DNA of 64,000 nt from Omnitrophica WOR_2 bacterium RIFCSPHIGHO2_02_FULL_50_17 (lineage in GTDB: Bacteria; Omnitrophota; Gorgyraeia; Zapsychrales; Zapsychraceae): assembly GCA_001805645.1 (NCBI GenBank), contig MHGQ01000032.1, positions 64,267-128,266 of the forward strand. The letters run 5' to 3'. Shown one piece after another: positions 6,865-56,154 of this stretch. Position 1 is the first letter of the stretch; the number at the start of each line of letters is the position of its first letter. Both the position numbers and the translations under genes were made by a program. A model generated the notes under the pieces. It searched no databases and was not told the DNA's origin. It saw only the letters and a list, made by a program, of their open reading frames with translations.

Positions 6865-6879
6865 TATTGCTCCTATGTT

Positions 6880-26818: not shown

Positions 26819-27797
26819 ACTTGATATCCCCCGATTGCAATAAAGTCTTCCTGATGCCCTCAACAATATCTATGGATGGTTTCCACCGCAATCTTTGATA
26901 CAATCGCTGATTGGACAAGACCAGAACCGATTTCTTACCCGCTTCATTATCGCATTTGACCGCCTCCGGCGGCCAATCTTTCAGCCGGCAAAAAGTTCGC
27001 GCCAACTCTCCAACGGACGTCCCATTTCCCGTCGACAAATTAAAAATTGCGCATCCTTTTTCTTCGCCATAGAGCAAAGACCTTGCAAAAGTTTCAATGA
27101 CATCTTCGATAAATATAAAATCCCTTACCGGTTGCAAATTATGCAAGAACACAGAATTCTTGAACTTCGCCTGATCGAGCATTGTCCCGAATATTGTATT
27201 TTTCTTCGAATCCAGCCCATAAATATTGCTAATCCGAAAAATATCGCAACTTAAGTCGGCAAACCTTGCGTATCCTTTAATGGCCTCTTCCGCCAATACT
27301 TTTGTCAAGGGATATACCCCTTCTGGATTTAAGGCAAATCCTTCTTCAATCGGCTGGTCATATGAGGTGCCATAAACATAAGCCGTTGAAGGATAAATAA
27401 TTCTTCGAATTTTATTTTTAACACAGGCCTCCAGTAAATTAGTTGTCAAAACAACGTTCTGTTCAACGGCGGCCGTTGGGTCGATTTCGCACTGGTTCGC
27501 GTCGCTCATGCCAGCCAAATGAAACACCGCGGCTTTAGGGCGGGGGATCTGCGACAATTGCCTCAAAGCTCGATCGACCACCTTGAGGTCCATCATGTTA
27601 CCATTGATCAGGCAGTCCTTTTCCAGAACCTCTGACGCGCCAGAAACATCCAGCCCTATGACCATGGCTCCAGCTTCCTGCAACCGCTTGGTCAATCTTC
27701 GCCCTATGACCCCTAACGCCCCCGTGACCAGGACTTTATATTCTTTAAGATCAATGCTCAACGATGTCCTCCGGACTAAGTTGGCTATCACGCGCAA
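26805..27797 (-). CDS. NAD-dependent epimerase/dehydratase (extended SDR)
   Basis: KVLVTGALGVIGRRL Rossmann motif, YPLTK (YxxxK). Confidence 0.75.
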   Translation of the reverse strand: MRVIANLVRRTSLSIDLKEYKVLVTGALGVIGRRLTKRLQEAGAMVIGLDVSGASEVLEKDCLINGNMMDLKVVDRALRQLSQIPRPKAAVFHLAGMSDANQCEIDPTAAVEQNVVLTTNLLEACVKNKIRRIIYPSTAYVYGTSYDQPIEEGFALNPEGVYPLTKVLAEEAIKGYARFADLSCDIFRISNIYGLDSKKNTIFGTMLDQAKFKNSVFLHNLQPVRDFIFIEDVIETFARSLLYGEEKGCAIFNLSTGNGTSVGELARTFCRLKDWPPEAVKCDNEAGKKSVLVLSNQRLYQRLRWKPSIDIVEGIRKTLLQSGDIKYAQT

Positions 27798-28791
27798 TGT
27801 TTTTGCTTGCTCTTTTTCCCAAAAGCTTCTTATAATCCTTGGCCAAAAAATGCCCCGTGCCGGGTCTTTTAACCCAAATATTTTCTTTCGTAAAAACTTC
27901 CCGGGCCTTTATATCTCGGAGAGAAACCACCGATGCGTAAGCAAAATCAATGACCGGCTGCTCTTCCTTCAATATATCCTTTTTACCTCCCGTGGCCATA
28001 AAAACTGCCCGAGAGCCTTTAACAAGTTCTGCTAATTCATCAGGCTCGACCGATAAAGACACATCAGGTCCTGGCCATTGGCGGCTAATCGTAAAATGTT
28101 TTTCCAGCGCGCAAGCCCCGAGGGCAACGGCGCCCAAGCAGGTATAAATATTGATAGAGTGATCGCTTAATCCCACCGGCAAATCAAAAGTCTCGCGCAG
28201 TTCGACAATGGCATTTAACCGGACTTTTTCATAAGGGGTGGGATACATCGAAGTGCAATGCATCAACATGAGAGGACATTTATATCGTTGTATAAGCCCC
28301 ACAGACGCTCTTACAGAACCAATATCGTTCATCCCGGTTGAAAGGATGATAGGTTTTCCCATCGCCGCGATATGTTCCAATAACGGCAAATTATTGCATT
28401 CCCCTGAACCGATCTTGAAGGCGGCGATGTCCAGAGCCTCCAGTCGATCGGCCGCCTCCCGGGAGAAGGGCGTACACAGATATATGATCCCTTTTTGTTC
28501 ACAATATTTTTTTAATCGACGCTCTTCTTCTTCGTTTAACTCGCAACGCTTTATAATATCCCATAATCTTTCCTCGGAAATCTTGCCTGGTTTCATGTCC
28601 GTCGGGATCATTTCCGCTTCGGTAATGTGACACTGGAATTTGACACAGTCGGCTTTGGCCGCAACGGCCGCATCCACCAACTGTCTAGCCTTGTCAAAAT
28701 CCCCCTCATGATTGATCCCAACTTCCGCAATAACAAAGGGCGGATGATTTGGTCCTATCATCCGTCCGTTAACATTGATCTCATTAGCCAT
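27751..28791 (-). CDS. N-acetylneuraminate/legionaminate/pseudaminate synthase family (NeuB-like) with C-terminal SAF domain
   Basis: FVIAEVGINHEGDFDKA…DCVKFQ…LSDHS…motifs of NeuB-family PEP-condensing synthases; 346 aa. Confidence 0.85.
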   Translation of the reverse strand: MANEINVNGRMIGPNHPPFVIAEVGINHEGDFDKARQLVDAAVAAKADCVKFQCHITEAEMIPTDMKPGKISEERLWDIIKRCELNEEEERRLKKYCEQKGIIYLCTPFSREAADRLEALDIAAFKIGSGECNNLPLLEHIAAMGKPIILSTGMNDIGSVRASVGLIQRYKCPLMLMHCTSMYPTPYEKVRLNAIVELRETFDLPVGLSDHSINIYTCLGAVALGACALEKHFTISRQWPGPDVSLSVEPDELAELVKGSRAVFMATGGKKDILKEEQPVIDFAYASVVSLRDIKAREVFTKENIWVKRPGTGHFLAKDYKKLLGKRASKNIARDSQLSPEDIVEH

Positions 28792-36098: not shown

Positions 36099-37185
36099 TC
36101 ATAACTGACGAATTTCTACCCGTCGCTTTTCCTGAGACGATTGGCGTATGGCTTCCATGGCCCTATGCGTCTTAAGACCGTCCCCAAAAGTGGCTCCGCC
36201 GACCGGGCGACCGTCTCTTATCGAATGAAGAAAATCATCTGCCATCCGCGTAAATGAAGCGCGCCATTCACTGCCGGAAACCCATCCCTCCATCAGCAAT
36301 GGATCCTTGATCGACAAATCGTGCACAGTTGTTGTCTTTCGAAACATCGTCAAATTCTGCTCGCCTTCCAGAAAAAGAGACCCTTTTTCACCATAAATCT
36401 GAATAGATGGCCCTTTCCATCCGATGGCCACACTCGAAACAACGCATGATGCAAAAACCCCGTTCTCAAAACCAAGCTGAAAAGAAGCGATCTCATCGGA
36501 AGTTACCTTGCGAAGCTTGTTACTTTTCAAATCACGGCGCTGGTCGGTAACCGTTTTTAACTCGCCGTTAACCCATTTCACTTCACCAAACCACCAACGC
36601 AACAAATCAATCTGATGAGAACCCATCGTGTAGAGTTGCCCGCCACCTTTTTTGATATCGGACCACCAGTTCCACGGGAGCCCCGGATCGATCCGGTTAG
36701 AGGTACTGTAATCCAGCGTCACATGCAAGATCCGCCCCAAATCCCCGTTCTCCAGGATTTTCTTTACGGCAATCTTCTGAAGCTGAAACCGCATCTGGTG
36801 TCCCACAAGATGGATGACACCGGCTTTTTCGACCGCTTTATACATTTGCACGGCATCCTGCACGTTACAACCGAGCGACTTCTCGCATAACAGATGCTTT
36901 TTTTCTCTTGGCGGCCTCAAAAACAATTTTTTTATGGGTTTCCGGTGGAGTTGCAACGGTAACGGCATCCACGTCCAGCCCCAAAAGCCCCCCGTAGTCG
37001 CTTAGGGCATATGGTACATCAAATTTCTTGGCCAGATTGCTGGTTTTTTCTTTATTCCTTCCACAGATCGCCACCACTTCAGAGCAAGGGTTTGCCTTAA
37101 AAGCCGGGAGATGAACCATCCCCCCATACCTTGTTCCTATAATGCCAATTTTTACAATTTCGGCACTCATAAGACTATTGAACAA
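36099..37185 (-). pseudogene. Gfo/Idh/MocA-family oxidoreductase split by a +1 frameshift in an A7 homopolymer (ORFs 36865..37185 and 36099..36968)
   Basis: The N-terminal ORF has the Rossmann IGIIGTRYGG motif and ends …EAAKRKKAS*; the second ORF continues KKHLLCEKSLG…. The intact paralog at 42219..43370 reads …GKHILCEKPM…. A run of seven A (minus strand, + coords ~36898-36904) sits at the junction, and deleting one A restores a single 361-aa frame. Confidence 0.7.
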
Positions 37186-38260
37186 CTCCCTCCAGCGGCA
37201 TTGTCTTTTTATTATGCGAAACTAAAAGGCGGTTAAAATTTTCGACGTGATCCATATAATTCTTAAACTTTTGTCGTTGTATAAAAAATAATAGTGAAAG
37301 ATATAGCCCCGCCAGTTTCCCACGTCTTGCATGTTTATTCAGAATGGAATTATATTGATTTAAACGACCGTTGGCGGCATCCCTAACAAGACGCAATTCT
37401 TTAATTTCTCTCTGAAAGGAGTTTTTGATTAAATAAAAAGATCTCTGGAGTCCGCCGATTCTCTTGTAAGAATAGGAGAATCTCCGTGCGTTTTCCATGA
37501 GGGCCTTATCGTCAAGTAGATCATAAATGGGGGGGCAACTGGGCCATTTCTTTATGGATATATCTGACAAGTAAAAATTCTTTTGCACTTCCAGGCCCAA
37601 CTTTTTCTTGAATCCATCGCGAAGCGCTTCAAACGAGGCAATAATTTCTTCAAACCGCAAGAAAACATAATCGTTTTCGGATAATTCAGGCAGCAGCCTT
37701 TGCAGGTTTAATAAATTACTAAGAACCGTCCCACGCGATTCGTTGAGGGCAATCTGTTTATTAAAACGTTCATGCAATGAGGCGATATTATCCAGGGGAT
37801 CCCGGACTTGACAGATAAACTTCAGGCTGATCTTCTTGCCTTCGTATCGATAATAATCCAGGATCAGGTCATGAAGAACATCCACATATTTCTGTTTCCA
37901 TGGGCCTTCTTGCGTTGTATATTTTCTGGAGAAATCAAAAATCGGTTTGTCTACATTATCGAAATATATTTCTTCAAATATACGGAAAATCCTTTCTTTC
38001 GTAAGCTCTTCCTTCTCCAGGGTTATCCCATGCGCAGAACATAGCTGTGCGAGAATATCCCAATGAGTGACACTTTCCCCGGCGAACTCTTCAAACGCGT
38101 TGGTATCGGGCGCAATCATGGCTGCGGCTGCTTTGGCCCAGAACTGGTCATGGTTGATCGGCTCAATGGTCCCTTTATTGTGCAAGTCCATCATAATGCT
38201 TCTGATGATGTGAGAGCCTGCACCGGAAGTTGTTAAATAAATAATAAATTTCTTAGACAT
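37175..38260 (-). CDS. Sulfotransferase-family protein (PAPS-dependent)
   Basis: N-terminal IIYLTTSGAGSHIIRS (5'-phosphosulfate-binding P-loop-like) and CQVRDPLDNIASL (RDP 3'-phosphate-binding motif); adjacent to APS kinase. Confidence 0.55.
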   Translation of the reverse strand: MSKKFIIYLTTSGAGSHIIRSIMMDLHNKGTIEPINHDQFWAKAAAAMIAPDTNAFEEFAGESVTHWDILAQLCSAHGITLEKEELTKERIFRIFEEIYFDNVDKPIFDFSRKYTTQEGPWKQKYVDVLHDLILDYYRYEGKKISLKFICQVRDPLDNIASLHERFNKQIALNESRGTVLSNLLNLQRLLPELSENDYVFLRFEEIIASFEALRDGFKKKLGLEVQKNFYLSDISIKKWPSCPPIYDLLDDKALMENARRFSYSYKRIGGLQRSFYLIKNSFQREIKELRLVRDAANGRLNQYNSILNKHARRGKLAGLYLSLLFFIQRQKFKNYMDHVENFNRLLVSHNKKTMPLEGVVQ

Positions 38261-38275
38261 ATTTTTATCCGGACA

Positions 38276-39247
38276 TCATGCTGAATAAATTTGCACAGAA
38301 TCATGATGGCGCAAGAGATTCAACGCTATCGCCGCGGCCTTTGTTTGTGACTCCACTGTAGCCCCGGCAATATGGGGAGAAATAACCACTCTCCCTTGTT
38401 TGTGCAATGCGATCAAAGCTGACTTAAACTGGTTTCCCGTCACCTCTGCGGACAAAACATCCAGCGCCACTTTGATGTCATGGCGCTCCTTTAAAACCTC
38501 CACTAAATCCTCCTCACGAAGAACTTCGCCCCTAGAAGTATTTATGAAACTGGCATTGTGTTTCAATCTTCTCAAAAGGGATTTGTCGATCATGCCGGTA
38601 GTTTTCGGAGTCAAGGCACAACAAATACAAACGATGTCCGACTCAGAAAATATCTGCTCCAGAGGCCGCTGAGGATAATCGGGAAAAGTTACATAAGGGT
38701 CGTAATAAGAAACCTTGGCCTCAAACGCGCTGCACCATTTCGCCAGTCGTTGTCCTATACGCCCCATACCCACCAATCCAACCTGCCGCCCATTTAATTC
38801 TTGCCCCCTTAGCATTTCTTCATTTTCGCGCCAGCGTCCCGCGGCGACTTCTTGTATAACCACATCAGGCCTTCGAAGCGTATTCAATAACAGAAGAAAA
38901 GTAAATTCCGCGCTGGCACTTATCGTATTAAGCCCTTGCCGATCATCCAGCAGAGTATAGACAGCGACGCCTTTTGCCCGACAATCTTCTTTATCGATAT
39001 GGTTACTGGCGGTCGATGGAGTTATAATGACTGATAGTGCCGGAAATAATCCAAATTCTTCAAGGCCGATAACAAAACGCTGGCCCGGATTTACAATCCA
39101 AATGGACAAAAATGAGTCCGGCGTCAATGCGGCACGGTCCCAAATCTCACAGAATTTTGTCGGAATTGCTTTCTGAAATTCTTCCTTCATATCCCCCAAA
39201 AAAGAATAGGGTGCGCTAAAAAGGCAATATTTATCCATATCGGCCAT
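38276..39247 (-). CDS. D-isomer-specific 2-hydroxyacid dehydrogenase family, NAD-binding
   Basis: GRQVGLVGMGRIGQRLAKW NAD-binding motif; C-terminal catalytic region …SRGEV…ISPHIAGAT. Confidence 0.8.
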   Translation of the reverse strand: MADMDKYCLFSAPYSFLGDMKEEFQKAIPTKFCEIWDRAALTPDSFLSIWIVNPGQRFVIGLEEFGLFPALSVIITPSTASNHIDKEDCRAKGVAVYTLLDDRQGLNTISASAEFTFLLLLNTLRRPDVVIQEVAAGRWRENEEMLRGQELNGRQVGLVGMGRIGQRLAKWCSAFEAKVSYYDPYVTFPDYPQRPLEQIFSESDIVCICCALTPKTTGMIDKSLLRRLKHNASFINTSRGEVLREEDLVEVLKERHDIKVALDVLSAEVTGNQFKSALIALHKQGRVVISPHIAGATVESQTKAAAIALNLLRHHDSVQIYSA

Positions 39248-39252
39248 AAAGT

Positions 39253-39819
39253 TTATTTGTTACAGAAATTTATGATTTCACGGGACACCAGATAATCGCA
39301 AATCATGCAAACGCATTTAGGCACATCAAGGCTGTCCGTTCTCAAATGAATTTCCGGGTTCCTGGGTTTTTCGTACGATGCCGTTACGCCGGTAAAATCC
39401 ACAATGTCACCTCGACGGGCTTTCGCATATAACCCCCTATAATCTCTTTCTTCACAAACTTCTACAGGACAATCGACAAAGACTTCAACGAACCTGTCTT
39501 TTTCAAAAAAACCACGCACCTTCTGCCTTTCGGCTTCACAGGGTGAAACTACGGCAACAATAACCATTATGTTATTATGCATCAGAAACCTGGCGACTTC
39601 TCCCACTCTTCGAACGTTCTCCGCCCTGTCTGCGGGGGAAAATCCCAAATCGCTGTTTAATCCTTTTCGGAGTTGGTCCCCATCAAGAATGATCGAGTGG
39701 ATCCCGGACTGCAGTAACTCTTTCCCAAAAGCGCTTGCGATTGTCGACTTTCCGGCTGACGGCAAACCGGTCAACCATATAACCGCACTTTTATGCCCAT
39801 TTAATTTCCTTTTATCCAA
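39253..39819 (-). CDS. cysC: Adenylyl-sulfate kinase (APS kinase, PAPS synthesis)
   Basis: IWLTGLPSAGKSTIA P-loop, ILDGDQLRKGL, FVEVFVDCPVEVCEERD; 188 aa; apparent TTG start. Confidence 0.85.
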   Translation of the reverse strand: MDKRKLNGHKSAVIWLTGLPSAGKSTIASAFGKELLQSGIHSIILDGDQLRKGLNSDLGFSPADRAENVRRVGEVARFLMHNNIMVIVAVVSPCEAERQKVRGFFEKDRFVEVFVDCPVEVCEERDYRGLYAKARRGDIVDFTGVTASYEKPRNPEIHLRTDSLDVPKCVCMICDYLVSREIINFCNK

Positions 39820-39885
39820 TTCACCGATCCCTTCTGTCTTACTACATCTTTCTGTATAAGCCTCTTAATTCTCTGCCCAATTGAG

Positions 39886-40123
39886 TTAGCTGAAGAAATT
39901 CTTCAGGTGTTGCACTAAGCACATGATCCCGGATGACCGATGAGGTCTTATTAAGCGTAAAATGTTTTTCAACAAACTGTGCCCCCCGGCTGACGGCCAG
40001 CAAACATGCCGCAATCCCGTGACAATGATCACTGTAGCCCCGGCAATATGGGGAGAAATAACCACTCTCCCTTGTTTGTGCAACGCGATCAAAGCTGACT
40101 TAAGCCGGTTTCCTGTCACTTCA
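39886..40123 (-). pseudogene. Duplicated 3'-end fragment of the 2-hydroxyacid dehydrogenase gene (second copy of a ~98-bp direct repeat)
   Basis: Fragment ORF encodes …[29 protein letters not shown]…, matching the C-terminus of 38276..39247 (…[29 protein letters not shown]…). Nucleotides 40026-40123 are ~95% identical to 38347-38444, and homology stops sharply at both ends. Confidence 0.7.
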
Positions 40124-41183
40124 AAGACTCTATTTTGTTTCTGAAATCAAGTTCCACCAAATCCGCCTTTTGACAGAGCTGTCCCCAGGTCAAATCATCA
40201 ACATAGATGCCTTCCTGCCGAGACTTCTCGGCATGCCGCTGTTCCGGTTCACCGGGAACAAGGATCTCGGAGATCCCTTTTGCTAACCTGGAAGACTTCA
40301 CATGCCGGCACAAGGAGTCCACCTTCTTTCGAAATTGAGTTAACGGTGTGAAAGCCTCGATGCGTAACGCCAAGAACCAGCAGGCATTCCCATGACGGGT
40401 GGCCTGGGCGTTGGAACATTGGGCGCCAGAAAGAGCGCCGCTCAAGGCATCAATGGCCAAGGATAAGGCAAATCCCTTATGCGCCGAAATCCCACCCAAA
40501 GGCAAGATGGCGCCGCGAGGGTCATGATAAAATTGTTTGGGATCCAGAGCTGAATTCCCCTCGGAATCAATGATCCAGCCTTCCGGGAGACTCTCCTTCT
40601 GATGCAATTTCATTTTCAAAGTTCCTTCCGCAACCATGCTGGTAGACATGTCCAAGAGAAACTCACCTTGCCCGTCCCTGGGAAAAGCGATGGAAATCGG
40701 ATTCGTCGGCAAGCGACGGTCGATGCCGCCAAAGGGTGCCACCACGTGGCTGGTCCCATGCAAATTGGCCATGCCCATCCCCACCATACCCTGTGCTACC
40801 GCTAAAGACGTATACGCACCCAAACGGCCGATGTGATTGCAATTCCGCACCGTTACGCAGGCTACGACTTGAGTCAGGGCTTTCTTCATAGCCAGCTCCA
40901 TGGCAAAACGCGCGATGGGCTGACCGAACCCCCAATGACCGTTGACAACTGCAGAAGAAGGAGTTTCCAACTCCACTGCAATGGACGCACCAGGAACTAT
41001 CTCGCCCTTTTGAATCTTCTCAATGTACCAGGGGGCCCGCAGAACCCCGTGCGAATCATGCCCCAGCAGATTCGACATCACCAAGTGGCTGCTGACTTCC
41101 TGCGCCTCCTGTTCAAACGCTCCATAATTTCTGAAAAGCTCAATAAGATTTTTTTCCAACGTATCCGGGGCTATCCGTATCAT
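40116..41183 (-). CDS. Ldh_2-family (malate/L-lactate/sulfolactate dehydrogenase-type) oxidoreductase
   Basis: LLGHDSHGVLRAPWY motif and overall Ldh_2-like composition; 355 aa. Confidence 0.7.
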   Translation of the reverse strand: MIRIAPDTLEKNLIELFRNYGAFEQEAQEVSSHLVMSNLLGHDSHGVLRAPWYIEKIQKGEIVPGASIAVELETPSSAVVNGHWGFGQPIARFAMELAMKKALTQVVACVTVRNCNHIGRLGAYTSLAVAQGMVGMGMANLHGTSHVVAPFGGIDRRLPTNPISIAFPRDGQGEFLLDMSTSMVAEGTLKMKLHQKESLPEGWIIDSEGNSALDPKQFYHDPRGAILPLGGISAHKGFALSLAIDALSGALSGAQCSNAQATRHGNACWFLALRIEAFTPLTQFRKKVDSLCRHVKSSRLAKGISEILVPGEPEQRHAEKSRQEGIYVDDLTWGQLCQKADLVELDFRNKIESLK

Positions 41184-42259
41184 ATGGCACCTTTCGTTCT
41201 GGGCCGCGCAATGACCAACAAACTGTCTGTCTGCCGCCGTTGGGCAAAGATCTTCCGGTAAATACGGTCAGGAAAATTCCAGACATCAATTGTCCCCTTG
41301 GAGGTTTGCACTTGGGGACGTTTCAAAAAAATCCAGCGCAAATGGTTGGACAGTCCATAAATTTGTACCGGGACAATCTGCCCATCCCAGCCGCACCGTT
41401 CCAAAGCCATCTGCAGCGTTTCCGGTGAGAAATAATTCAAATGCGGGAGTTGATAGAAAAAATCTTCATACCTTGAAGAATGATAAATGGTCAAAAGAGG
41501 ATCCCAAAGATTAGGCAAAAGCATTAACAGAATTCCTGAATCGGAAATCAACTCCCTTAACTTCTTTAAATCCGCTAAGGGATCATGTAAATGTTCCAAA
41601 ACAAACCACATACAGATGACATCAAAAGGATCCATCCCCCCTTGTCCAGACCCGCGTCGCCCGATCAGATTCTGGTGTCCCTCTGCAACCCCATGTCCAG
41701 CGCAAGCCCCAGCGCCGTGACGAGACACGGAAAGATTTCCAATAGGCTCCTGCAGAACCTCAATGCCCAGTTTTTGGCGGACATAAGCGGCAAATGTAGA
41801 ATCCAGCTCCAAGGCGGTACATTTCCTGACATGGGGCTGAACCAGGAATAAGAAGCTGCCCGAGCCACAACCTATTTCCAAAAGAGAAATCTTCTTGCTC
41901 AAATAAGGCTTAACAAGGGCAAAACGGTGCCTGGCCTGTCCCATTCTTGACCGGAAGGTATCTTCCGGATCATGTATCTGCAGTCCCAGTCTTTCCCGGG
42001 GGACATTCCGGTAGTCACCCTTCTGATAGAAATCAACGGTTTCCTGCTGGCCCATCCTTGGCCATAGAAAGACAAAACCACAGCCCTGACAGGACATAAC
42101 ATCGCGCAGAACCCCATAACGCAGACGATTACGAATCCGTTTCTGTTTGTCTCCCAGGCAAAGCGGACATACCGCTTTTTCTTCTTGAGAATTGTTCGCC
42201 GAGCTCTTCACATCAACGCTACTGTTCATCGGGAACCCCCAAGGATAAGCGCACTTCAT
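41180..42259 (-). CDS. Class I SAM-dependent methyltransferase with N-terminal Cys4 zinc-ribbon
   Basis: CPLC…CQGC pairs, motif I LLEIGCGSGSF, motif II-like FDVICMWFVLEHLHDP; an unusually Gly/Ala-rich 35-aa linker between them. Confidence 0.65.
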   Translation of the reverse strand: MKCAYPWGFPMNSSVDVKSSANNSQEEKAVCPLCLGDKQKRIRNRLRYGVLRDVMSCQGCGFVFLWPRMGQQETVDFYQKGDYRNVPRERLGLQIHDPEDTFRSRMGQARHRFALVKPYLSKKISLLEIGCGSGSFLFLVQPHVRKCTALELDSTFAAYVRQKLGIEVLQEPIGNLSVSRHGAGACAGHGVAEGHQNLIGRRGSGQGGMDPFDVICMWFVLEHLHDPLADLKKLRELISDSGILLMLLPNLWDPLLTIYHSSRYEDFFYQLPHLNYFSPETLQMALERCGWDGQIVPVQIYGLSNHLRWIFLKRPQVQTSKGTIDVWNFPDRIYRKIFAQRRQTDSLLVIARPRTKGAI

Positions 42260-43370
42260 CAGTCACCGAAGAACCAGGACTGTCGTCCCTCTGCGAAATG
42301 CCGACCCGGCGTTGGGTTTGATGGGAAATCTTCACCGCCTCTAAGACTTCCTGGATTCTGACCCCATCCCAAAACGTGGAGCCATCACGATAGGGGGTAT
42401 GGACAAAACGTTGCGATTGGATGCATTCAACTAAATGTTCGGCCAACCGAACCAAAGAAGTGCGCCATGGATTCAATCCTACAACCGGTTCTTTCCGCAA
42501 AGAATCAGGCTCAGAAAGATCATGCGAACAACCGTCCTTTACCAAAAACAATTTCTCAAACCCTCTTAGAACCAGAGAACCTTCAGAGCCCGTAATCCGC
42601 ATATCCAATGCAGGCTCATCCGGATCAACGCAGGAGGTCACGATCACCGCTGTCAGGCCGGAACAAAATTCCAAGTCCATAGAAACATACTCATCCGACG
42701 TGACTGCCCGCATCTTATGGGTGCTTGGATCCATCCTTTCTCTCGTGAACGTTGCCAAATGTCCCTGGACTGACCGAATCTCACCAAACCACCACCGCAA
42801 TAAATCAACAAAATGAGAACCTAATGCCAGCAGCTGTCCTCCACCAGCCTTCTCATCAGACCACCAGTCCCAAGGCAAGGATGGATCACAACGCACCGCG
42901 GTAAAATAAGCCAATTGCACATACCTCAGGTTTCCCACGATGCTGTTGCCCAACAGTTTCTTGATCTTTTGACAATTGGGATGAAAACGCATCTGGTGAT
43001 TGATCACCGCCATCGTGCCGGAACCCTGCGATAATTGAAATATCTGACGGGCTTCCTCCACATTCAAGGCCATGGGTTTTTCACACAGGATATGTTTCCC
43101 GGCCTGCAACGCTTGCCCAACCATCCGGCTGTGCAGAAAGGGAGGCACCTCGATACAGACCAAATCGATCTCCGGACAATTCAGCATCTGCTCCAGAGAG
43201 GAGAAAAGATATTTGACCTTGTACTGTTCAGCAATTTTCTTCATTTTCTCTGGAGTTCTGCTCGCCAATGCCAAGACATTCATCCCCTCAGCCACAGAAA
43301 AACAAGGAAGAGTCACCCTGCTCCCAAATCCGCTACCGATGATACCCACTTGTACAGGATGAGGTCTCAT
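42219..43370 (-). CDS. Gfo/Idh/MocA-family oxidoreductase
   Basis: VQVGIIGSGFGSR Rossmann motif, ILCEKPMAL; start MRPHP at 43370 forms ATGA overlap with upstream stop. Confidence 0.8.
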   Translation of the reverse strand: MRPHPVQVGIIGSGFGSRVTLPCFSVAEGMNVLALASRTPEKMKKIAEQYKVKYLFSSLEQMLNCPEIDLVCIEVPPFLHSRMVGQALQAGKHILCEKPMALNVEEARQIFQLSQGSGTMAVINHQMRFHPNCQKIKKLLGNSIVGNLRYVQLAYFTAVRCDPSLPWDWWSDEKAGGGQLLALGSHFVDLLRWWFGEIRSVQGHLATFTRERMDPSTHKMRAVTSDEYVSMDLEFCSGLTAVIVTSCVDPDEPALDMRITGSEGSLVLRGFEKLFLVKDGCSHDLSEPDSLRKEPVVGLNPWRTSLVRLAEHLVECIQSQRFVHTPYRDGSTFWDGVRIQEVLEAVKISHQTQRRVGISQRDDSPGSSVTDEVRLSLGVPDEQ

Positions 43371-44206
43371 CGCAATCGCCCCGTCTTTTCCAGAATCAGA
43401 AAATTCCTCGATATCTGCCTGTTGAGCACTTTTCCAGCCTCCTCCCATGTCATCACAGGACTAATGGTGTTCCGCGGGTATTTCTTCAATAAGATCTCAG
43501 CCACAGCCATATCAATCTCCGCATCAATATTAATTGACCTTTCCGCCGGCATAATATAAGGCCGACTGTCGGAGGTGCCGTAACGGGAGCCTCTCTTCAA
43601 GAGATCACGCTTCATAGCATAAATGGCCCCATTTCGGATGTAGGCGTCCGGCTTCAAGGCCTGACGGTGCGTCTCAGGAATTTCGGGCAAACAGAAATCG
43701 ACGATCTGATCATCCATAATTTTTTTGATGCGGATGGGATGATGATCTTCCAGCTTCGTCACGCCAATGACCGAATCCACCGCCGTCGTCATCAATTTTT
43801 CCAAGGCCGCGTCAATGTCTGCCGACGTTTTCATGGGGTTCGTGCAAAGCAACTCGACCACGTAATCATAAGGAACGCCTTCTTCCTCTTCCGCCCAAGC
43901 CAAGGCGTGCTGATCAGCGGCCAAGGCCGTGGCTGAATCCGTGGCCAGTTCGGCAGGCCGGACAAACGGTGCCTGCGCTCCATACTGAATGGCGGTCCTG
44001 CGGATTTCCTCGCTATCCGAAGAAACAATCAACCGGCTAATCCACCGACTCCTTAAAGCCTCGCAGATCGTATAAGCGATCAAAGGCTTCCCCAAGAGAG
44101 GACGAATATTTTTTTTAATCACGGATTTTGATCCTCCCCGCGCCAGGATGATCCCTAGGACACGCGGATTAGAGGAAGACCCAAACTTTTCTTGTTCGGC
44201 CAACAT
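43367..44206 (-). CDS. Acylneuraminate cytidylyltransferase (CMP-nonulosonic acid synthetase)
   Basis: LGIILARGGSKSVIKKN motif; ~65% identical by eye to the N-terminal domain of 48732..50516. Confidence 0.8.
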   Translation of the reverse strand: MLAEQEKFGSSSNPRVLGIILARGGSKSVIKKNIRPLLGKPLIAYTICEALRSRWISRLIVSSDSEEIRRTAIQYGAQAPFVRPAELATDSATALAADQHALAWAEEEEGVPYDYVVELLCTNPMKTSADIDAALEKLMTTAVDSVIGVTKLEDHHPIRIKKIMDDQIVDFCLPEIPETHRQALKPDAYIRNGAIYAMKRDLLKRGSRYGTSDSRPYIMPAERSINIDAEIDMAVAEILLKKYPRNTISPVMTWEEAGKVLNRQISRNFLILEKTGRLR

Positions 44207-44207
44207 C

Positions 44208-45254
44208 TCACCCCTCCAGCATATCAAGCGTCAATAAGGTATCCTCAGGGATATCCCATTTAGCCCTTTTGCCCAACACATCATTGATGCTGGAAACCGG
44301 CAGTCCGGTCCCGGGGTTTTTAAAATCCAGCATAGATTCCTCAATCCGGGAACCCCCTTTTATGATTCGGGCGGAAACGATCGAAACATGATATTTATTG
44401 CGGGTTACTTGTTCTCTTTCACTGACCCATTTCTCGCCGCTCCCCAGGATTTGCTCGACTTGGCGGATCTGGAGGGCCATCCCCTTCAATTCCGCCGGTT
44501 CCAGTGACAACTTGTGGTCGAATCCCACCATCGTTTTATCCAAAGTGACATGACGCTCCACTACCTTGGCCCCGCGCGCCACGGCCAGCAAAGTTGGCCA
44601 AGCGCCGATCTCATGGCCGGAATACCCCACCGTGACACCATATCGTTCTCGAAGTGTATCTATAATTTTTAAATTGGATTCTTCCGGGGCCTGAGGATAA
44701 GAAGACACGCAGTGCAATAAAACTAAAGGCGCTCCCCAGCTCTTTAATATGTCCACGGCCCGATCCAATTCTTTCAACACACACATGCCGGTGGAAAGAA
44801 TCACCGGCTTCGCGATCTTAGCCAGTTTCTTCAAAAGAGGCAGATTGGTCACACTGTGACTTGCCGTCTTGTAGCCGCAGACATCCAAGGTTTCCAGAAA
44901 ATCAACGGAAGGGATATCGAATGCCGTGCATAGGAAAATCATGCCCCGGGATCGGGCATGGTTAATAATCTGACGGTACTGCCGAGCATCAAACTCCAGA
45001 TGATTGCGGATGTCCCGATATGTCCTGCCGAATTCCGGGAAGCGTGGATCCGGCGCATCCAGAACGTCCTTGATGGCCAGCCCAGCAACATTCCTCTTTT
45101 GGAATTTCACGCAATCCACCCCCGCCTCCTGACAGGCGTCAATCAGGCGCTGGGCCAATTCCACACTCCCGTTGTGATTCAAGCCGATTTCACCAATGAT
45201 AAAGCACGGATGAGATTCTCCAATCCGTCTTTTTTCCAATAGAATATCCTGCAT
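44208..45254 (-). CDS. NeuB-family nonulosonic acid synthase (second copy) with SAF domain
   Basis: CFIIGEIGLNHNGSVELA…DCVKFQKR…GYSGHE motifs. Confidence 0.85.
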   Translation of the reverse strand: MQDILLEKRRIGESHPCFIIGEIGLNHNGSVELAQRLIDACQEAGVDCVKFQKRNVAGLAIKDVLDAPDPRFPEFGRTYRDIRNHLEFDARQYRQIINHARSRGMIFLCTAFDIPSVDFLETLDVCGYKTASHSVTNLPLLKKLAKIAKPVILSTGMCVLKELDRAVDILKSWGAPLVLLHCVSSYPQAPEESNLKIIDTLRERYGVTVGYSGHEIGAWPTLLAVARGAKVVERHVTLDKTMVGFDHKLSLEPAELKGMALQIRQVEQILGSGEKWVSEREQVTRNKYHVSIVSARIIKGGSRIEESMLDFKNPGTGLPVSSINDVLGKRAKWDIPEDTLLTLDMLEG

Positions 45255-45283
45255 AATATATTCTCCTGTCCATAAAAACGTTT

Positions 45284-46684
45284 TTATGGCAAAAACTGTT
45301 TCTTTTCACTCAGACTCAACTCTTTTTCCAGAAAAAATCGGGCGATTTCCTGGAAATAAGGATCGCTGACCTTGATCGTGTATTGTTGATTGGCGATATT
45401 CAAAAGCTCGACCTGATCACCCAGCAACATACCCTTGCGGATAAAACGGCTCGAGGTGATGCATCCTAATCCAATCAATCCCTCATAAACCGGATTCTTT
45501 TCGCTGCGCGGTTTCAGATTCTCACCGATCATTTGATAGCCGCGCTCTCCACAAAACCAAAAAAGCCGAAAATTTTTAAAGGCCGCGATTGTGCTATCCG
45601 ACCCCGTATACACATACTGCTCAATCAGAGCATTGAAGAACCCGTCAGGCCGGAAGGGGAACAAATAATTCACAAACAACACGGCATCCGTAATCGGATT
45701 CTGTTTTTCATATTCAGTCAGGGCAAAATTCAACGTGTTCTCCACACTCTTGCCCCGTGCCAGGAATTTTTCTTCCCGCTTTATGGCCTTAACGCCCTCT
45801 TTTTGAGCAAAGAGAAGAACACTATCGCGTTCACTGATCACGATAACATCCTTAATGTAGGAACACTGGCGCAACTGCTGGATCGTCCGTAACAACAGAT
45901 TCGTTCTGTCTACACACTTGATCTCTCCAATAAGGGGCACAAAAGCTATAATATTCAACTGTCCGGGTTTGAAACTGGCCGGGAGATCACCGCTGAAGTC
46001 CATATGGAGATTCTCCATAATCCTGACCGTCTGTTCGTACCGCTCTTTTTTATTGCTATGGTGGATCCCATGGTAATGGAACACCTCTGCTTCGGGCTCG
46101 TAAACAATCTGATACCCCTCATTGATGACTGTCTGGGCCCAAACACGATCTTCAATGTTCGTTACTTCTTCATCAAAAGGAAGTCTTTCCCACAATGCCC
46201 GTGGAATCATACTGTTGGCATTATGAAAGAATGTGTCCTTGTGCTGAATCCTTTTATCCAACCCAAAAGTGATCAGGAGGTCTCTCTTGTCGATACCCGA
46301 AGAATAGCGCAGGGGGATCTGCCGGCCATAAACCCCCGCAATGTTCCCTTCGTTGGCGGAAAAATTCCGTAACAAATTTTCCAGCCATTTTTCATGTTTA
46401 GGGATACAGTGCGCCGACAGACAGACCGCATATTCACCGTGGGACACCCGGATACCGTTGTTCAAAGCCTGCCCGGGATAATATTTCTCGATTTCCACTA
46501 TTTTAACTGGAAATGTCCTGGCCAGAGCCAGGGTATTATCCGTGCTTTTATTATCAACGACCACCACTTCGACATCCTGAACCGTCTGAGAAAAAACCAT
46601 GCGCAGGCAATGTACAATCCATTGCTCCTCGTTCCTCGTCCGGATGATCACGGACACCCTTGGAAATTTCTTGGGATAGTTCAT
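45284..46684 (-). CDS. GT2 glycosyltransferase fused to a C-terminal cytidylyltransferase-like (NTP-transferase) domain
   Basis: N-terminal RVSVIIRTRNEE…VVVVDNKSTDNT (GT2); C-terminal LNIIAFVPLIGEIKCVD… resembles the nucleotidyltransferase fold. Confidence 0.6.
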   Translation of the reverse strand: MNYPKKFPRVSVIIRTRNEEQWIVHCLRMVFSQTVQDVEVVVVDNKSTDNTLALARTFPVKIVEIEKYYPGQALNNGIRVSHGEYAVCLSAHCIPKHEKWLENLLRNFSANEGNIAGVYGRQIPLRYSSGIDKRDLLITFGLDKRIQHKDTFFHNANSMIPRALWERLPFDEEVTNIEDRVWAQTVINEGYQIVYEPEAEVFHYHGIHHSNKKERYEQTVRIMENLHMDFSGDLPASFKPGQLNIIAFVPLIGEIKCVDRTNLLLRTIQQLRQCSYIKDVIVISERDSVLLFAQKEGVKAIKREEKFLARGKSVENTLNFALTEYEKQNPITDAVLFVNYLFPFRPDGFFNALIEQYVYTGSDSTIAAFKNFRLFWFCGERGYQMIGENLKPRSEKNPVYEGLIGLGCITSSRFIRKGMLLGDQVELLNIANQQYTIKVSDPYFQEIARFFLEKELSLSEKKQFLP

Positions 46685-47682
46685 TTAACGACCCCTCCTT
46701 CAGCCCGGCACGGCAAGGCCCCGGACAACAAACATTCCGCTAACTGCATGCTCACCAGCGCCTCCCTCAAAGTAGCACCGGGAAAACCGATCTTCTTCTT
46801 GTCCAAGCAGGCATCTATAAACATCCTATTCTGAGCGAAAAGACCTGGCTTAAAATCCCGATCCTCCTGACTGATCGGCAGAGCTTGCTGGGTCCCATCA
46901 GAAAAAGTGACCCGGCCTTCTTCCATAGGTTCAATGTCAAGGCGCCATCCGTCCCCAAACAGTCTGACGGCCCAATTCCCAGGAGAATTCCAATTCGACA
47001 GATAATGACCAATCGCCCCCTGTTCAAATCGAATAAGGGCGTGCAGGCAATCCGGATGCAGCGGTTCCTTCCAAGTCTGCTGCATAACATGAAATTCCTT
47101 GATATGCCCTCCCAAAAAGGAGAGCATATCCAAACAATGAATGCCGTTGTTGAAGATCCATCGGCGCAAAACTTCCTGGGGGAACTTTTTCTTGGCCTTG
47201 ATTTCCTCAAACCGTTCAGGAGCCTCGACCACCAAAGACATCAACGGGGACCGCTGACGGATCATCCGGATACCCTCCATAACCGTACTGGAAAAACGTC
47301 TCTGCAGTCCCACCATATGGATCACGCCCTTGAATTCGGCGATCTGAAGAAGTTCTTCGGTTTCTTCCACGGATAAACCCGGCGGTTTTTCAATCAATGA
47401 GGGGATGCCTCTGACCAAACATGATCTCGCCACAGTAAAATTGTCCATGACACTCACACAGATAAAAACCGCATCCAAGGCCTCCTGATCCAGCATTTCT
47501 AAAAAGCTGGAATAGTTCCGCGGAATATTATACTTTCGGCAGACGGCATTCCTTCTTTCTTCGCTCCATTGATTGGCTAAGGCCACCACCTCCACATCAT
47601 TCATCTTGAGCAGGACATCAAGATGAAAACAGGCCATCCGCCCTGCCCCGATGATCCCCACACGGCATTTTGTCTTCATCAA
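46681..47682 (-). CDS. Gfo/Idh/MocA-family oxidoreductase
   Basis: CRVGIIGAGRMACFH Rossmann motif, 333 aa. Confidence 0.8.
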   Translation of the reverse strand: MMKTKCRVGIIGAGRMACFHLDVLLKMNDVEVVALANQWSEERRNAVCRKYNIPRNYSSFLEMLDQEALDAVFICVSVMDNFTVARSCLVRGIPSLIEKPPGLSVEETEELLQIAEFKGVIHMVGLQRRFSSTVMEGIRMIRQRSPLMSLVVEAPERFEEIKAKKKFPQEVLRRWIFNNGIHCLDMLSFLGGHIKEFHVMQQTWKEPLHPDCLHALIRFEQGAIGHYLSNWNSPGNWAVRLFGDGWRLDIEPMEEGRVTFSDGTQQALPISQEDRDFKPGLFAQNRMFIDACLDKKKIGFPGATLREALVSMQLAECLLSGALPCRAEGGVVK

Positions 47683-47710: not shown

Positions 47711-48745
47711 CTAAGTAAACTGGTATTCTGTCTGAAAAATTTCTTGATGCAACGGCAATTCAACCGGCTGATTACCATGGCCTTCCGATTGATGGATGGC
47801 AATGGAAACCATAAGACTCCGTAACCCGTCAACGCCACTACAGCTGACGGGTCCTGTGGAAAACAACTCCTCTATCGCCCTACGGCTGCAGTCAATCATA
47901 TCAATATCGCTTCCGGTAAAAGCAATAGGGATTAAAGGCGGCCGGCGCGTGAAAGGCTGGTCGCGGTCCTTGGGGTTGCGGGCAAAAATTTCCCACTTGC
48001 TGTATTTCTCATCAATAAGGACTCGACCAATAGACCCCATGATCTCAATAAAAGAGGGGACCCCGTAATCTTCGCACATATCAAAAAATATCCGGACGCC
48101 TCCTTCCAGCCAGACAAGGCCGTAGGCGCCCGGATCGCGGTACTGCGGGCCCCGGGGATTGGGAGTTCCTGTTCTATCGAGGTAACCCAAGACTCTCACC
48201 GGCTCTTTATCCGTCAGAAACCGCACCAAATCCCAGAAATGCCCGCCATTTGAGGCCAGTTGTCCTCCCGCCATCTCAAAGGTGATATGACGGATTTCCC
48301 CAATAACCCCATCTTCAAGCTGGGCCTTGAGCCGCGCATAGGCAGGAACCCACCGGCGCAGATGATTGATCGCCAAGCGAACACCTTTTCCCCTGCAAGT
48401 TTCTGTCATCCTTTGGGCATCTAATAGCGAGGTTGCCATCGGCTTCTCGCATAAAATTCTTGGGACACCGCACTCGGCCGCGGCCATCGTAATCATGGCA
48501 TGCGATGGGCCGTTGGATGCGATAATCAAAAGATCTAATTTTTCACTCTGGAGCAAATCTTTCCACTGAACATAACTTCGGCGCGGCGCGTACTGCTGGT
48601 TAACCTGATTAATCACCTCAGGCCTCAAATCACACACGGCCGTCAATTCCACATTTTTCAACGTTTTTAGGGCCTCACAGTGACGACGGCCCATGCCTCC
48701 CAATCCTATGACACCGACTTTTTTAAACTCTTCAAACATGCCCAT
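47711..48745 (-). CDS. Gfo/Idh/MocA-family oxidoreductase
   Basis: KKVGVIGLGGMGRRHCEAL Rossmann motif, ILCEKPMATS. Confidence 0.8.
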   Translation of the reverse strand: MGMFEEFKKVGVIGLGGMGRRHCEALKTLKNVELTAVCDLRPEVINQVNQQYAPRRSYVQWKDLLQSEKLDLLIIASNGPSHAMITMAAAECGVPRILCEKPMATSLLDAQRMTETCRGKGVRLAINHLRRWVPAYARLKAQLEDGVIGEIRHITFEMAGGQLASNGGHFWDLVRFLTDKEPVRVLGYLDRTGTPNPRGPQYRDPGAYGLVWLEGGVRIFFDMCEDYGVPSFIEIMGSIGRVLIDEKYSKWEIFARNPKDRDQPFTRRPPLIPIAFTGSDIDMIDCSRRAIEELFSTGPVSCSGVDGLRSLMVSIAIHQSEGHGNQPVELPLHQEIFQTEYQFT

Positions 48746-50516
48746 TCCTTCGCTCTTGTTCTTTATAAGCCTCCTGAGGAACAGTCATTCTCAACGGCTT
48801 GCCGGTAAGAAAATTCAACACTTCTTGGACAGCGCCCATTTCCATCGCCCTTTTACAGTCAACAGATGCGGCGGCCATGTGTGAGGTCAACAAACAATTA
48901 TCCAGTTGCGCCAGCGGCCCATCGTAGGGTTCTTTCTCAAAAACATCCAGGGCGGCGCCGGCGATTTTGCATGATTGCAGCGCTTCAAAAAGATCTTCTT
49001 CACAAATAATGCCTCCTCGCGAAGTATTAACAAGCAAAGCCTCCGGCTTCATCATGCCCAATTCCTTACAGGTTATAAAATATCTTGTTGCTTGCGTAAG
49101 TGGAAGATGCAGGGAAATAATATCGGATTCTCTCAATAACTTTTCCTTATCAACCCACTGAAAATTACGCTCATCTGCCGATATATCACTTTGCCTAAGA
49201 TCGAAGCCCAAAACCCTGGTGCCGAATCCTTGAAGATATTTAACAACTAACTTCCCTATGGAACCGACTCCCATCAATCCCACGGTACAATCTGCCAATC
49301 GTCGGCCAACCTGTCTTTTCCATACGCCCTTATGAAGATCCTGATTGGCTTGAGGGATATGCCGTAACAAAGCGAGCATGCATCCAACAACAAATTCCGC
49401 TACAGCCGGCGCGGGCGCGTGAGGCGTATAAGTCACTTGAATCCCCTTTTCTTTGGCCGCCAATAAATCAATATTGTCCAGCCCAATCCCTGCGCGAGCA
49501 ATCAACCGTAAATAAGGGGCTGCATCTATGACCTTCCTGGTGACAGGGCTTGTCCCTGCCAGCAAAATACCAAAATCTTTAATAAGCTCGATGGTTTCAT
49601 TTTCTGTAGGACGCCTGCCCAGCGGATTTATCGTATAATCCACTTTATTTTTCTTTAGTAATTCAATCGGGGAGTCATCGTAATCACCGAAGGGGACGGT
49701 GGTAATAAGGACCCTTTTCCCCTGTGATCTGGTGGGGATATAACCGGGCGCCTCTGTTTTTCCCAAATCAGCTTCTTGGCTGGCTAACCGTATATAATCC
49801 CGAGGGAACTTCTTCAACAAAATCTCCGCCATATAAAAATCGTTTATAGCGTCGATATTAACCGTTCGTTCCTCGGGCATGATATAGGGGCGGCTATTTT
49901 CTGAACCGATCCTCGTATGAATGCAATCCCTCCTACAGGCATATATGGACCCATTACGAATGTAGGCATCGGGCTTAAGCGCCTGCCGATGAGAACCTGG
50001 AATTTCTTTCAAGCAAAAATCGACAATCCGGTCATCAACAATTTTCTTGATGCGAACGGGATGGTGGTCCTGTAGTTTGGCCACTCCAATAACTGAATCT
50101 GCCCCAGTCTGGACCAATTTCTCAATGCACTGGTCAATGTCTTCGCTTGTCTTCATAGGATTGGTGCACAACATCTCAACGATGTAATCATAGCGTTTCC
50201 CCTCATTTTTTTCGGCCCATTCAACGGCATGCTCCAGGGCGTCGTTAGATGACGCCGTGTCCGTCGCCAGATGAGCCGGCCTCAGAAACGGAGCCTCGGC
50301 CCCGTATTGAATCGCTACCTTTTGGATTTCCAAGTCATCAGTAGAAACAATCAGTCGACTTAATTTTTTGCTTCGCAAGGCCTCACAAATCGTGTAAGCG
50401 ATCAAAGGATGCCCGTCAAGCAAACGGATGTTCTTTCCGGGAATCGCCTTTGATCCGCCACGGGCCAAAATTATCCCGATAATCCGTGGACTGAATTGTT
50501 CTTTGTTTGTTTTCAC
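48732..50516 (-). CDS. Fusion protein: acylneuraminate cytidylyltransferase (N) + D-3-phosphoglycerate/2-hydroxyacid dehydrogenase-like domain (C)
   Basis: N-terminus RIIGIILARGGSKAIPGKN (paralog of 43367..44206); C-terminal half GLMGVGSIGKLVVKYLQGFG…NTSRGGII…SHMAAAS typical of SerA/D-2-HADH. Confidence 0.75.
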   Translation of the reverse strand: MKTNKEQFSPRIIGIILARGGSKAIPGKNIRLLDGHPLIAYTICEALRSKKLSRLIVSTDDLEIQKVAIQYGAEAPFLRPAHLATDTASSNDALEHAVEWAEKNEGKRYDYIVEMLCTNPMKTSEDIDQCIEKLVQTGADSVIGVAKLQDHHPVRIKKIVDDRIVDFCLKEIPGSHRQALKPDAYIRNGSIYACRRDCIHTRIGSENSRPYIMPEERTVNIDAINDFYMAEILLKKFPRDYIRLASQEADLGKTEAPGYIPTRSQGKRVLITTVPFGDYDDSPIELLKKNKVDYTINPLGRRPTENETIELIKDFGILLAGTSPVTRKVIDAAPYLRLIARAGIGLDNIDLLAAKEKGIQVTYTPHAPAPAVAEFVVGCMLALLRHIPQANQDLHKGVWKRQVGRRLADCTVGLMGVGSIGKLVVKYLQGFGTRVLGFDLRQSDISADERNFQWVDKEKLLRESDIISLHLPLTQATRYFITCKELGMMKPEALLVNTSRGGIICEEDLFEALQSCKIAGAALDVFEKEPYDGPLAQLDNCLLTSHMAAASVDCKRAMEMGAVQEVLNFLTGKPLRMTVPQEAYKEQERRNGHV

Positions 50517-55009: not shown

Positions 55010-55014
55010 ATATT

Positions 55015-55722: not shown

Positions 55723-55736
55723 GTTTTCCCCACGAT

Positions 55737-56150: not shown

Positions 56151-56154
56151 AATA

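Follow-up and report, generated by a model that had tools for sequence, protein, structure and literature searches.

Why does an uncultivated groundwater bacterium keep a gene for adenylyl-sulfate (APS) kinase, cysC, inside a cluster of surface-sugar genes, and which enzyme would consume the 3'-phosphoadenosine 5'-phosphosulfate (PAPS) that this kinase supplies? The question is raised by a stretch of 64,000 nucleotides, referred to below as the window, that covers positions 64,267 to 128,266 of contig MHGQ01000032.1 (assembly GCA_001805645.1) from Omnitrophica WOR_2 bacterium RIFCSPHIGHO2_02_FULL_50_17, a member of the phylum Omnitrophota. A first-pass annotation, made from the DNA letters and their translations, had pointed here to cysC and to a nearby protein of 361 amino acids (aa) with sulfotransferase-like motifs, and had read the pair as a local PAPS supply for a sulfated sugar. 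All three of the open reading frames (ORFs) that it listed are present where it placed them, on the minus strand. Its interpretation is supported by the computations described here, and neither the fold of the 361-aa protein nor the genomic setting of cysC relatives spoke against it. Because cysC sits by an atypical sulfotransferase in a surface-sugar cluster, the bacterium probably sulfates one of its sialic-acid-like sugars, and we lean towards the view that cysC and the 361-aa protein constitute a dedicated PAPS-dependent sulfation module, possibly with a nonulosonic acid as the acceptor.

A conserved gene block around cysC

The cysC gene (39253-39819, minus strand; 188 aa, TTG start) encodes what is, as judged from its sequence, a bona fide APS kinase, which would make PAPS from APS and ATP. 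The protein matches the Pfam family PF01583 with an E-value of 1.2e-60 (204 bits, cut-off 21.1), and it also scores well above the cut-offs of the NCBIfam equivalog TIGR00455 (232.4 bits, cut-off 138.7) and of NF003013 (231.9 bits, cut-off 163). The Walker A P-loop GLPSAGKST, of the form GxxxxGK[ST], maps to 39742-39768, and a six-frame motif scan located the LDGDxxR substrate/Mg motif as LDGDQLRKGL (ILDGDQLRKGLNSDLGFS). With the PF01583 and TIGR00455 cut-offs exceeded and both motifs in place, the earlier call of a clear adenylyl-sulfate kinase of 188 aa with this P-loop holds. The nearest relative of the enzyme is a single 86%-identical orthologue in a sister lineage, compared with which the dN/dS of the gene is 0.086, followed by ordinary APS kinases of about 55% identity from many phyla.

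A gap of 5 nt separates cysC from the gene of a D-isomer-specific 2-hydroxyacid dehydrogenase (2HADH; 38276-39247, minus strand; 323 aa), which matches PF02826 with an E-value of 3.2e-43 and scores under every NCBIfam equivalog cut-off. This is the one gene between cysC and that of the 361-aa protein, which follows after a further 15 nt (37175-38260, minus strand) and which we describe below as a divergent sulfotransferase-superfamily protein (ST). The last gene of the block codes for a GFO/IDH/MocA oxidoreductase (GFO; 36099-37185, minus strand) and is split into the ORFs 36865-37185 and 36099-36968, each with one half of the Pfam match. In the sister lineage, represented by four independent contigs with 81-86% protein identity, the order is a short NeuB-like gene (227 aa), cysC, 2-Hacid_dh, ST and GFO/IDH/MocA. 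Measured against that lineage, the dN/dS is 0.114 for the 2HADH gene and 0.101 for the ST gene, and the four genes cysC, 2HADH, ST and GFO form a tight, conserved block under purifying selection (dN/dS 0.09-0.12). They are probably co-transcribed; scans for promoters and terminators did no better than on shuffled sequence, and neither the Rfam nor the tRNA scan gave a hit in the window.

Fold and family of the 361-residue protein

The 361-aa protein has few relatives. A word-indexed search of 5.8 billion proteins returned the protein itself, listed as a hypothetical protein, one relative of 81% identity, one of 49% and nothing else, a word-indexed profile search brought no additional members, and a scan of the GTDB representative genomes found none. 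An exhaustive phmmer search of 1.84 billion representative proteins gave 19 relatives at E <= 0.001, and the family is therefore small and rare. Two alignments of it are used here, a wider set of 20 sequences and a Pfam-negative core set of nine. NCBIfam yielded no match and PDB no direct sequence match, and a profile of three sequences searched against PDB gave noise only. Two homologues, on the other hand, are recognised by Pfam as sulfotransferases. The first, P0016 (E = 8e-11 to the 361-aa protein), passes both PF00685 Sulfotransfer_1 (36 bits, cut-off 22) and PF13469 Sulfotransfer_3 (31.4 bits, cut-off 27); the other, P0020, passes PF13469 (31.1 bits against 27) and has no PDB sequence match by itself. 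When profiles were compared with hhalign, the nine-sequence core aligned with P0016/P0017 at a probability of 99.7% (E = 1e-26, 300 columns) and with P0020 at 97.3% (E = 2.6e-11, 241 columns). The Pfam confirmation that the first-pass annotation had proposed is thus missing as a direct match, but is obtained by way of these two Pfam-positive proteins.

The same superfamily emerges from comparisons with known structures. Searched against PDB with hmmsearch, the 20-sequence profile matched the CurM sulfotransferase (CurM ST; 4gbm, E = 2.2e-4), the olefin-synthase sulfotransferase (OLS ST; 4gox, 1.5e-3) and TPST1 (0.06), in an alignment centred on the 3'-phosphate-binding strand-turn-helix. An AlphaFold (AF2) model of the 361-aa protein, built from the 20-sequence alignment, reached a pLDDT of 91.1 and a pTM of 0.89. 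In a Foldseek search of this model against PDB, the top 22 matches all have the sulfotransferase fold, namely TPST1/2, CurM ST, OLS ST, 3rnl, retinol dehydratase and SULT2A1. The best of them have E-values of 1.5e-4 to 5.5e-4 and target-normalised TM-scores of 0.49-0.58, while nucleotide kinases in the same search are about 100-fold weaker (about 1e-2). In fact, an earlier model from three sequences, poor as it was (pLDDT 57), matched the same structural families. The modelled strands comprise residues 3-9, 107-109, 144-152 and 198-202, and the prediction contains the parallel beta-sheet between helices, the strand-loop-helix and the strand-turn-helix by which the superfamily fold is recognised. 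A sulfotransferase fold, as the first-pass annotation had anticipated, is therefore predicted for the protein. At the C terminus the model adds a helical extension of about 90 residues (about residues 270-350), and no hydrophobic segment that could serve as a membrane anchor was found in the protein (maximum Kyte-Doolittle 19-mer score 1.0).

The first-pass annotation had also named a 5'-phosphosulfate-binding (PSB) and an RDP-containing 3'-phosphate-binding (3'-PB) motif. Both stretches are real, but they differ in quality: the second is an exact consensus, whereas the first is without the Lys or Arg that defines it. The sequence RDPLDNIAS, residues 153-161 (window positions 37778-37804), matches exactly the RxxxDxxxS consensus described for 3'-PB in PF00685 (PMC11625862); R153, P155, D157 and S161 are invariant in the nine-sequence core family, and the stretch aligns with VRHPYSVIES of CurM ST. 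The PSB-like loop, TTSGAGSH at 38210-38233 (family consensus TDGAGTH), lies within the strand-loop-helix of residues 3-28, and the hhalign comparison with P0020 pairs TTDGAGTH with SSKCSGSS.

The best structural and profile matches, CurM/OLS ST (4gbm, 4gox) and TPST1/2 (5wrj, 3ap3), place the protein near the Sulfotransfer_3-like branch. With these enzymes the family has in common the strand-loop-helix, the strand-turn-helix with R..P.....S and the Arg that follows, at an overall identity of 12-15%. It departs from them in that CurM/OLS ST and TPST carry PRSGST or PRSGTT with the catalytic Arg where the family has DGAGTH, and in its C-terminal extension. The acceptors would differ as well, being acyl-ACP for CurM/OLS and protein tyrosine for TPST, and presumably a sugar for the 361-aa protein. 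By three independent lines, transitive sequence similarity, profile matches in PDB and predicted structure, we identify it as a divergent member of the PAPS-sulfotransferase superfamily.

What the family might act on is indicated by the loci in which its members are encoded. Around the 49% relative the order is formyltransferase-like gene, polysaccharide deacetylase, 2-Hacid_dh, GFO and ST, and a 23% relative is placed between a CTP_transf_3 gene and genes for GFO, DegT and NeuB. A 27% relative from a marine locus (L032) clusters with GFO, a methyltransferase, an HpcH-type aldolase, a KdsB-type cytidylyltransferase, an IMPase-family phosphatase, 2-Hacid_dh, an NTP-transferase, epimerases and GT2. 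Further relatives have sugar-nucleotide or glycosyltransferase surroundings, and the family is therefore consistently glycan-associated. It is repeatedly linked to genes for CMP-activated ulosonic or nonulosonic acids and to the same two oxidoreductase families; 2HADH co-occurs with ST in L001, in the sister-lineage loci L022-L025 and in L032. The phosphatase gene of L032 (4517-5296) belongs to the inositol-monophosphatase/CysQ family, and its product could remove the by-product PAP; it scores 78.7 bits with the PAP phosphatase CysQ model, below the cut-off of 228.8, and the FBPase/IMPase models score better.

A proposed sulfation module and its alternatives

In the mechanism that we propose, an ATP sulfurylase encoded elsewhere would make APS, which CysC would then phosphorylate to PAPS. 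The 361-aa enzyme would be soluble and a divergent representative of the TPST/CurM-like (Sulfotransfer_3-type) branch. It would bind PAPS through its RxxxDxxxS 3'-phosphate motif and its glycine-rich strand-loop-helix, and would place the sulfate on a hydroxyl group of a sugar that the locus produces. The likeliest acceptor would be a residue of a nonulosonic or ulosonic acid, the CMP-activated precursor of such a residue, or a side chain of the hydroxyacyl type that 2HADH and GFO have shaped.

Several observations weigh against this proposal. A conserved catalytic Lys or Arg is expected in the PSB loop of sulfotransferases (PMC11625862), and the loop of the 361-aa protein is glycine-rich, without either residue and with Gly13 in that position. 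At least 90% of the 20 aligned sequences of the family have G13, and G13, A14 and G15 are invariant in the core of nine; a weak alignment with CurM ST, not significant on its own in this stretch, pairs PRSGST with DGAGTH and sets Gly13 opposite the Arg. Since Gly13 replaces the PSB Lys/Arg, sulfotransferase activity of the protein is not assured; on the evidence of the aligned sequences this is a real departure from the accepted active-site definition and the chief reason for caution. A basic residue from elsewhere in the protein may stand in for the Lys/Arg, and the conserved residues D109 (which closes strand 107-109), H17 and E164 are candidates for a catalytic base. The protein also has no Pfam match even at E <= 10, as all sulfotransferase models (PF00685, PF13469, PF03567 and others) failed. 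Within the sequence available around the other family members no cysC was found beside them; the pairing is confined to the two Omnitrophota, and the link to cysC thus rests on two closely related lineages. The GFO gene, moreover, is frameshifted in this population: an A7 run (T7 on the plus strand, 36898-36904) has one A too many, and 10 independent assemblies show the same run. The gene is otherwise undamaged, and with one A removed it reads through with a dN/dS of 0.116; its counterpart in the sister lineage is intact (356 aa). The frameshift could represent a recent fixed inactivation, phase variation, or a lesion rescued by transcriptional or translational slippage.

A further point of the same kind is the source of APS. 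No ATP sulfurylase (CysDN/Sat) was found by a Pfam scan of 47 of the 52 minus-strand ORFs of at least 150 aa in the window; three of the remaining five carry precomputed Pfam labels on an identical contig, and the six-frame motif scan took in all. Nor was one found in about 12.6 kb of contig flanking the window, or in the 10 kb upstream of the block in the sister lineage. Neither CysQ nor a sulfate transporter was detected in the window or its flanks of about 12.6 kb, and CysH was likewise not seen there. Two SGGKDS motifs, at about 22179 and about 63704, were considered as CysD and rejected, their owners being a PP-loop protein beside a HisH/HisF fusion and a diphthamide-synthase-like protein. 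The statement of the first-pass annotation that the window holds no sulfate adenylyltransferase is thus borne out by Pfam and by motif scans, the CysD-type matches coming from PP-loop proteins of other families.

The glycine in place of the catalytic Lys/Arg (PMC11625862), the missing direct Pfam match and the family members without a nearby cysC would all be understandable if the 361-aa protein had the fold of a sulfotransferase and were not one, being instead a binder of PAP(S) or another nucleotide, a regulator, a scaffold or a catalyst of some other transfer, with the PAPS going to another enzyme. We regard this as unlikely. The strictly conserved 3'-phosphate-binding Arg, Asp and Ser point to PAP(S) binding, selection on the ST gene is strongly purifying, and two lineages share its tight linkage to cysC. 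The window has no paralogue of the protein and, with Pfam scans included, no other sulfotransferase candidate that we could detect, and the conserved basic residues R20, R165 and K238 could substitute for the one missing from the loop. A housekeeping role for cysC, in assimilatory sulfate metabolism, with its place in the glycan locus owed to chance after a local rearrangement, seems to us very improbable. It would agree with the recombination-left gene remnants in the DNA just upstream of cysC and with the lack of an accompanying ATP sulfurylase; however, in the sister lineage the order and spacing of cysC, 2HADH, ST and GFO are the same across the boundary of the rearrangement, the vicinity of cysC contains no cysH, sulfite reductase or cysDN, and the gene shares its block with the only sulfotransferase-fold gene in 64 kb. 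The first-pass annotation had suggested checking whether cysC homologues serve assimilation, and the sole close homologue sits in the same cysC-2HADH-ST-GFO block and in no assimilatory operon.

The remaining alternative accepts the sulfotransferase and questions the fate of the sulfate. The best profile matches, CurM ST and OLS ST, are activating sulfotransferases, the Foldseek matches include retinol dehydratase and LGS1, and redox enzymes (2-Hacid_dh, GFO/IDH/MocA) accompany the ST family in several loci that are unrelated to one another. Sulfation could thus be transient and create a leaving group, as with CurM, OLS ST, retinol dehydratase and LGS1, after which elimination, substitution or reduction by the neighbouring enzymes would yield an ulosonic acid that is deoxy, unsaturated or rearranged, and the mature glycan would be free of sulfate. 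The similarity to CurM/OLS nevertheless does not extend beyond the PAPS-binding core, and the scores of TPSTs are just as good; no partner of the thioesterase-like or lyase kind turned up, and a dedicated PAPS supply is equally expected for stoichiometric decoration; a transient sulfate is in our judgement improbable. Returning to a sulfation module made of cysC and the 361-aa protein, we add as a speculative extension that the protein may found a small, hitherto unrecognised family of prokaryotic sulfotransferases that work without PSB Lys/Arg, acting on nonulosonic or ulosonic acids or their CMP precursors, or, alternatively, that its sulfate might serve as the leaving group for a new ulosonic-acid variant.

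Dedicated PAPS systems with comparable roles are known from NodPQ/NodH of Sinorhizobium and RaxPQ/RaxST of Xanthomonas, in which a second PAPS system is paired with a sulfotransferase specialised for a molecule that is secreted or located at the surface. These systems carry their own ATP sulfurylase (NodP/NodQ and RaxP/RaxQ), unlike the cysC-only block of the Omnitrophota. Second copies of cysC and cysND occur with sulfotransferases in the sulfated-capsule cluster of Vibrio sp. KMM 8419, and the joint presence of PAPS-biosynthesis and sulfotransferase genes in polysaccharide loci has been proposed as a hallmark of sulfated polysaccharide synthesis (PMC11641403). Like the loci of Vibrio KMM 8419 and Cobetia marina, the one described here combines a PAPS-synthesis gene with a sulfotransferase within a polysaccharide locus, and this combination is therefore already known. 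To speak of an uncommon bacterial glycan modification, as the first-pass annotation did, is reasonable, although capsule loci that combine genes for PAPS supply with sulfotransferases had already been described (PMC11641403). The Vibrio cluster has cysN, cysD and cysC, sulfotransferases that standard annotation detects, and a polysaccharide built on Rha/Glc, whereas the Omnitrophota locus has cysC only, a Pfam-negative ST with a PSB loop devoid of Lys/Arg, and a setting of nonulosonic-acid genes, in an uncultivated host. What is different here is thus a rare Pfam-negative ST family with a non-canonical PSB, a cysC without its own ATP sulfurylase, the nonulosonic-acid context and the host phylum.

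Among bacterial enzymes, NodH has an RxG motif in its PSB and belongs to PF13469, and the mycobacterial trehalose sulfotransferase Stf0 has a non-consensus PSB loop, in which Ala and Arg take the places of Gly and Lys (PMC11625862). Stf0 thereby keeps a basic residue in the PSB, whereas the 361-aa family has none at that position, and it is not among the top 50 Foldseek matches of the model. If the acceptor is a nonulosonic acid, the vertebrate enzymes of sialic-acid sulfation (PMC9304399) would be a functional analogue, although they are eukaryotic. The literature searched, whose coverage was incomplete, contained no report of a sulfated prokaryotic nonulosonic acid and no paper on both Omnitrophota and nonulosonic acids.

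Chemical surveys show sulfated and sialic-acid-like glycoconjugates to be common in environmental biofilms, homology searches recover few bacterial sulfotransferases, and the suspicion has been voiced that the reference sulfotransferases are not the enzymes involved (PMC10483923, PMC11625862). The present locus offers a concrete case, a sulfotransferase-fold family that goes undetected by the Pfam and NCBIfam models tried, whose likely function is flagged by a nearby dedicated cysC and whose neighbours point to nonulosonic or ulosonic acids as its targets. Should the family be active without a PSB Lys/Arg, the active site of sulfotransferases would have to be defined more broadly than is now accepted, and uncultivated Omnitrophota would be seen to build richly decorated, strongly anionic surface glycans. 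If its acceptor is as proposed, the product would be a sulfated sialic-acid-like sugar, the first to be described from a bacterium.

The surrounding glycan locus and its variable cassette

All long ORFs of the window are on the minus strand, and the window is almost wholly occupied by one glycan locus of more than 75 kb in total. This locus starts at about 62.8 kb, beside CobS and a diphthamide-synthase-like gene, and runs past window position 1 into Wzy_C, GT4 and PMT_2 genes. Its enzymes include two NeuB-type synthases (27751-28791 and 44208-45254) and four PseF-like cytidylyltransferases (17974-18726, 20522-21280, 43367-44227 and 48732-50516), all of them on the minus strand and below the NCBIfam equivalog cut-offs, as well as a NeuC-type hydrolysing 2-epimerase (25631-26866, minus strand; 395 bits, cut-off 236). 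With four PseF-like enzymes, two NeuB and one NeuC in the locus, several different nonulosonic acids may be made. Five GFO/IDH/MocA genes, a carbamoyltransferase, O-acyltransferases, several methyltransferases, GT2 enzymes and an ABC exporter are also encoded in it.

The DNA directly upstream of cysC bears the marks of recombination. The 296-nt stretch that appears intergenic is built of gene remnants. The last 64 codons of a NeuB-like gene, identified by translation and tblastn, lie at 39845-40036 (minus strand); in the sister lineage the intact gene of 227 aa (L022 9295-9978) directly precedes cysC. Next to this remnant, at 40030-40122 (minus strand), a repeat search and blastn revealed a 93-nt copy of the 3' end of the 2HADH gene, 95% identical to the stretch at 38354-38446, which marks a cassette junction and gives the upstream Ldh_2 gene its stop codon. 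Collinearity with the sister lineage in blastn (76-82% DNA identity) breaks at 46839 and resumes at 40039, where that lineage has about 2.1 kb (L022 7688-9781) instead. The segment between, a variable cassette of about 6.8 kb (40039-46839, minus strand), encodes GT2, NeuB, a PseF-like cytidylyltransferase, GFO/IDH/MocA, a methyltransferase and Ldh_2. Its GT2 protein is merely 20% identical to that of the sister lineage, and its G+C content is about 0.50, compared with 0.40-0.46 in the 10 kb downstream (30-40 kb). The duplicate and the remnant upstream of cysC are scars of cassette replacement, and because collinearity breaks right upstream of it, the sulfation block can be described as the conserved neighbour of a variable, serotype-like cassette. 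We also considered Ldh_2 (40116-41183) as a sulfolactate dehydrogenase linked to cysC and rejected it, since it scores 231 bits against a cut-off of 500 for sulfolactate and 252 against 336 for malate/lactate; as a member of the block it was rejected too, since it belongs to the variable cassette that the sister lineage does not have.

Several other features of the locus were recorded. The PseF-like gene at 48732-50516 (minus strand) encodes a protein of 594 aa in which a CMP-sugar cytidylyltransferase is fused to a complete D-2-hydroxyacid dehydrogenase. This fusion is kept in the sister lineage (L022 4031-5821) and suggests a direct part for 2-hydroxyacid dehydrogenases in the nonulosonic-acid pathway of this locus. 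An acyl-decoration set at 53600-58193 (and at L026 8181-8874) comprises an FkbH-like protein, a small PP-binding acyl carrier protein (ACP), a MaoC dehydratase, an SDR and an MBOAT O-acyltransferase. It is followed by two further proteins, one of 656 aa that is PF27878 (PFTS_polysacc) by precomputed annotation and one of 374 aa without a Pfam match. The two 656-aa ORFs were considered as paralogues and rejected, there being no similarity between them. At 21235-22500 and 24165-25634 (minus strand), a 421-aa PP-loop protein with the SGGKDS motif (no Pfam match at 1e-3) is found near a HisF-HisH fusion, with a formyltransferase-like gene and a polysaccharide deacetylase close by, and the set resembles one for acetamidino or formyl modification of sugars. 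An IS110-family transposase gene (DEDD_Tnp_IS110 and Transposase_20) is inserted within the locus at 6911-7939 (minus strand). Finally, two B12-binding radical-SAM enzymes and one radical-SAM/SPASM enzyme are encoded at 2205-3770, 5530-6954 and 15781-16962 (minus strand), and these genes hint at unusual C-methylation or other radical chemistry on sugars.

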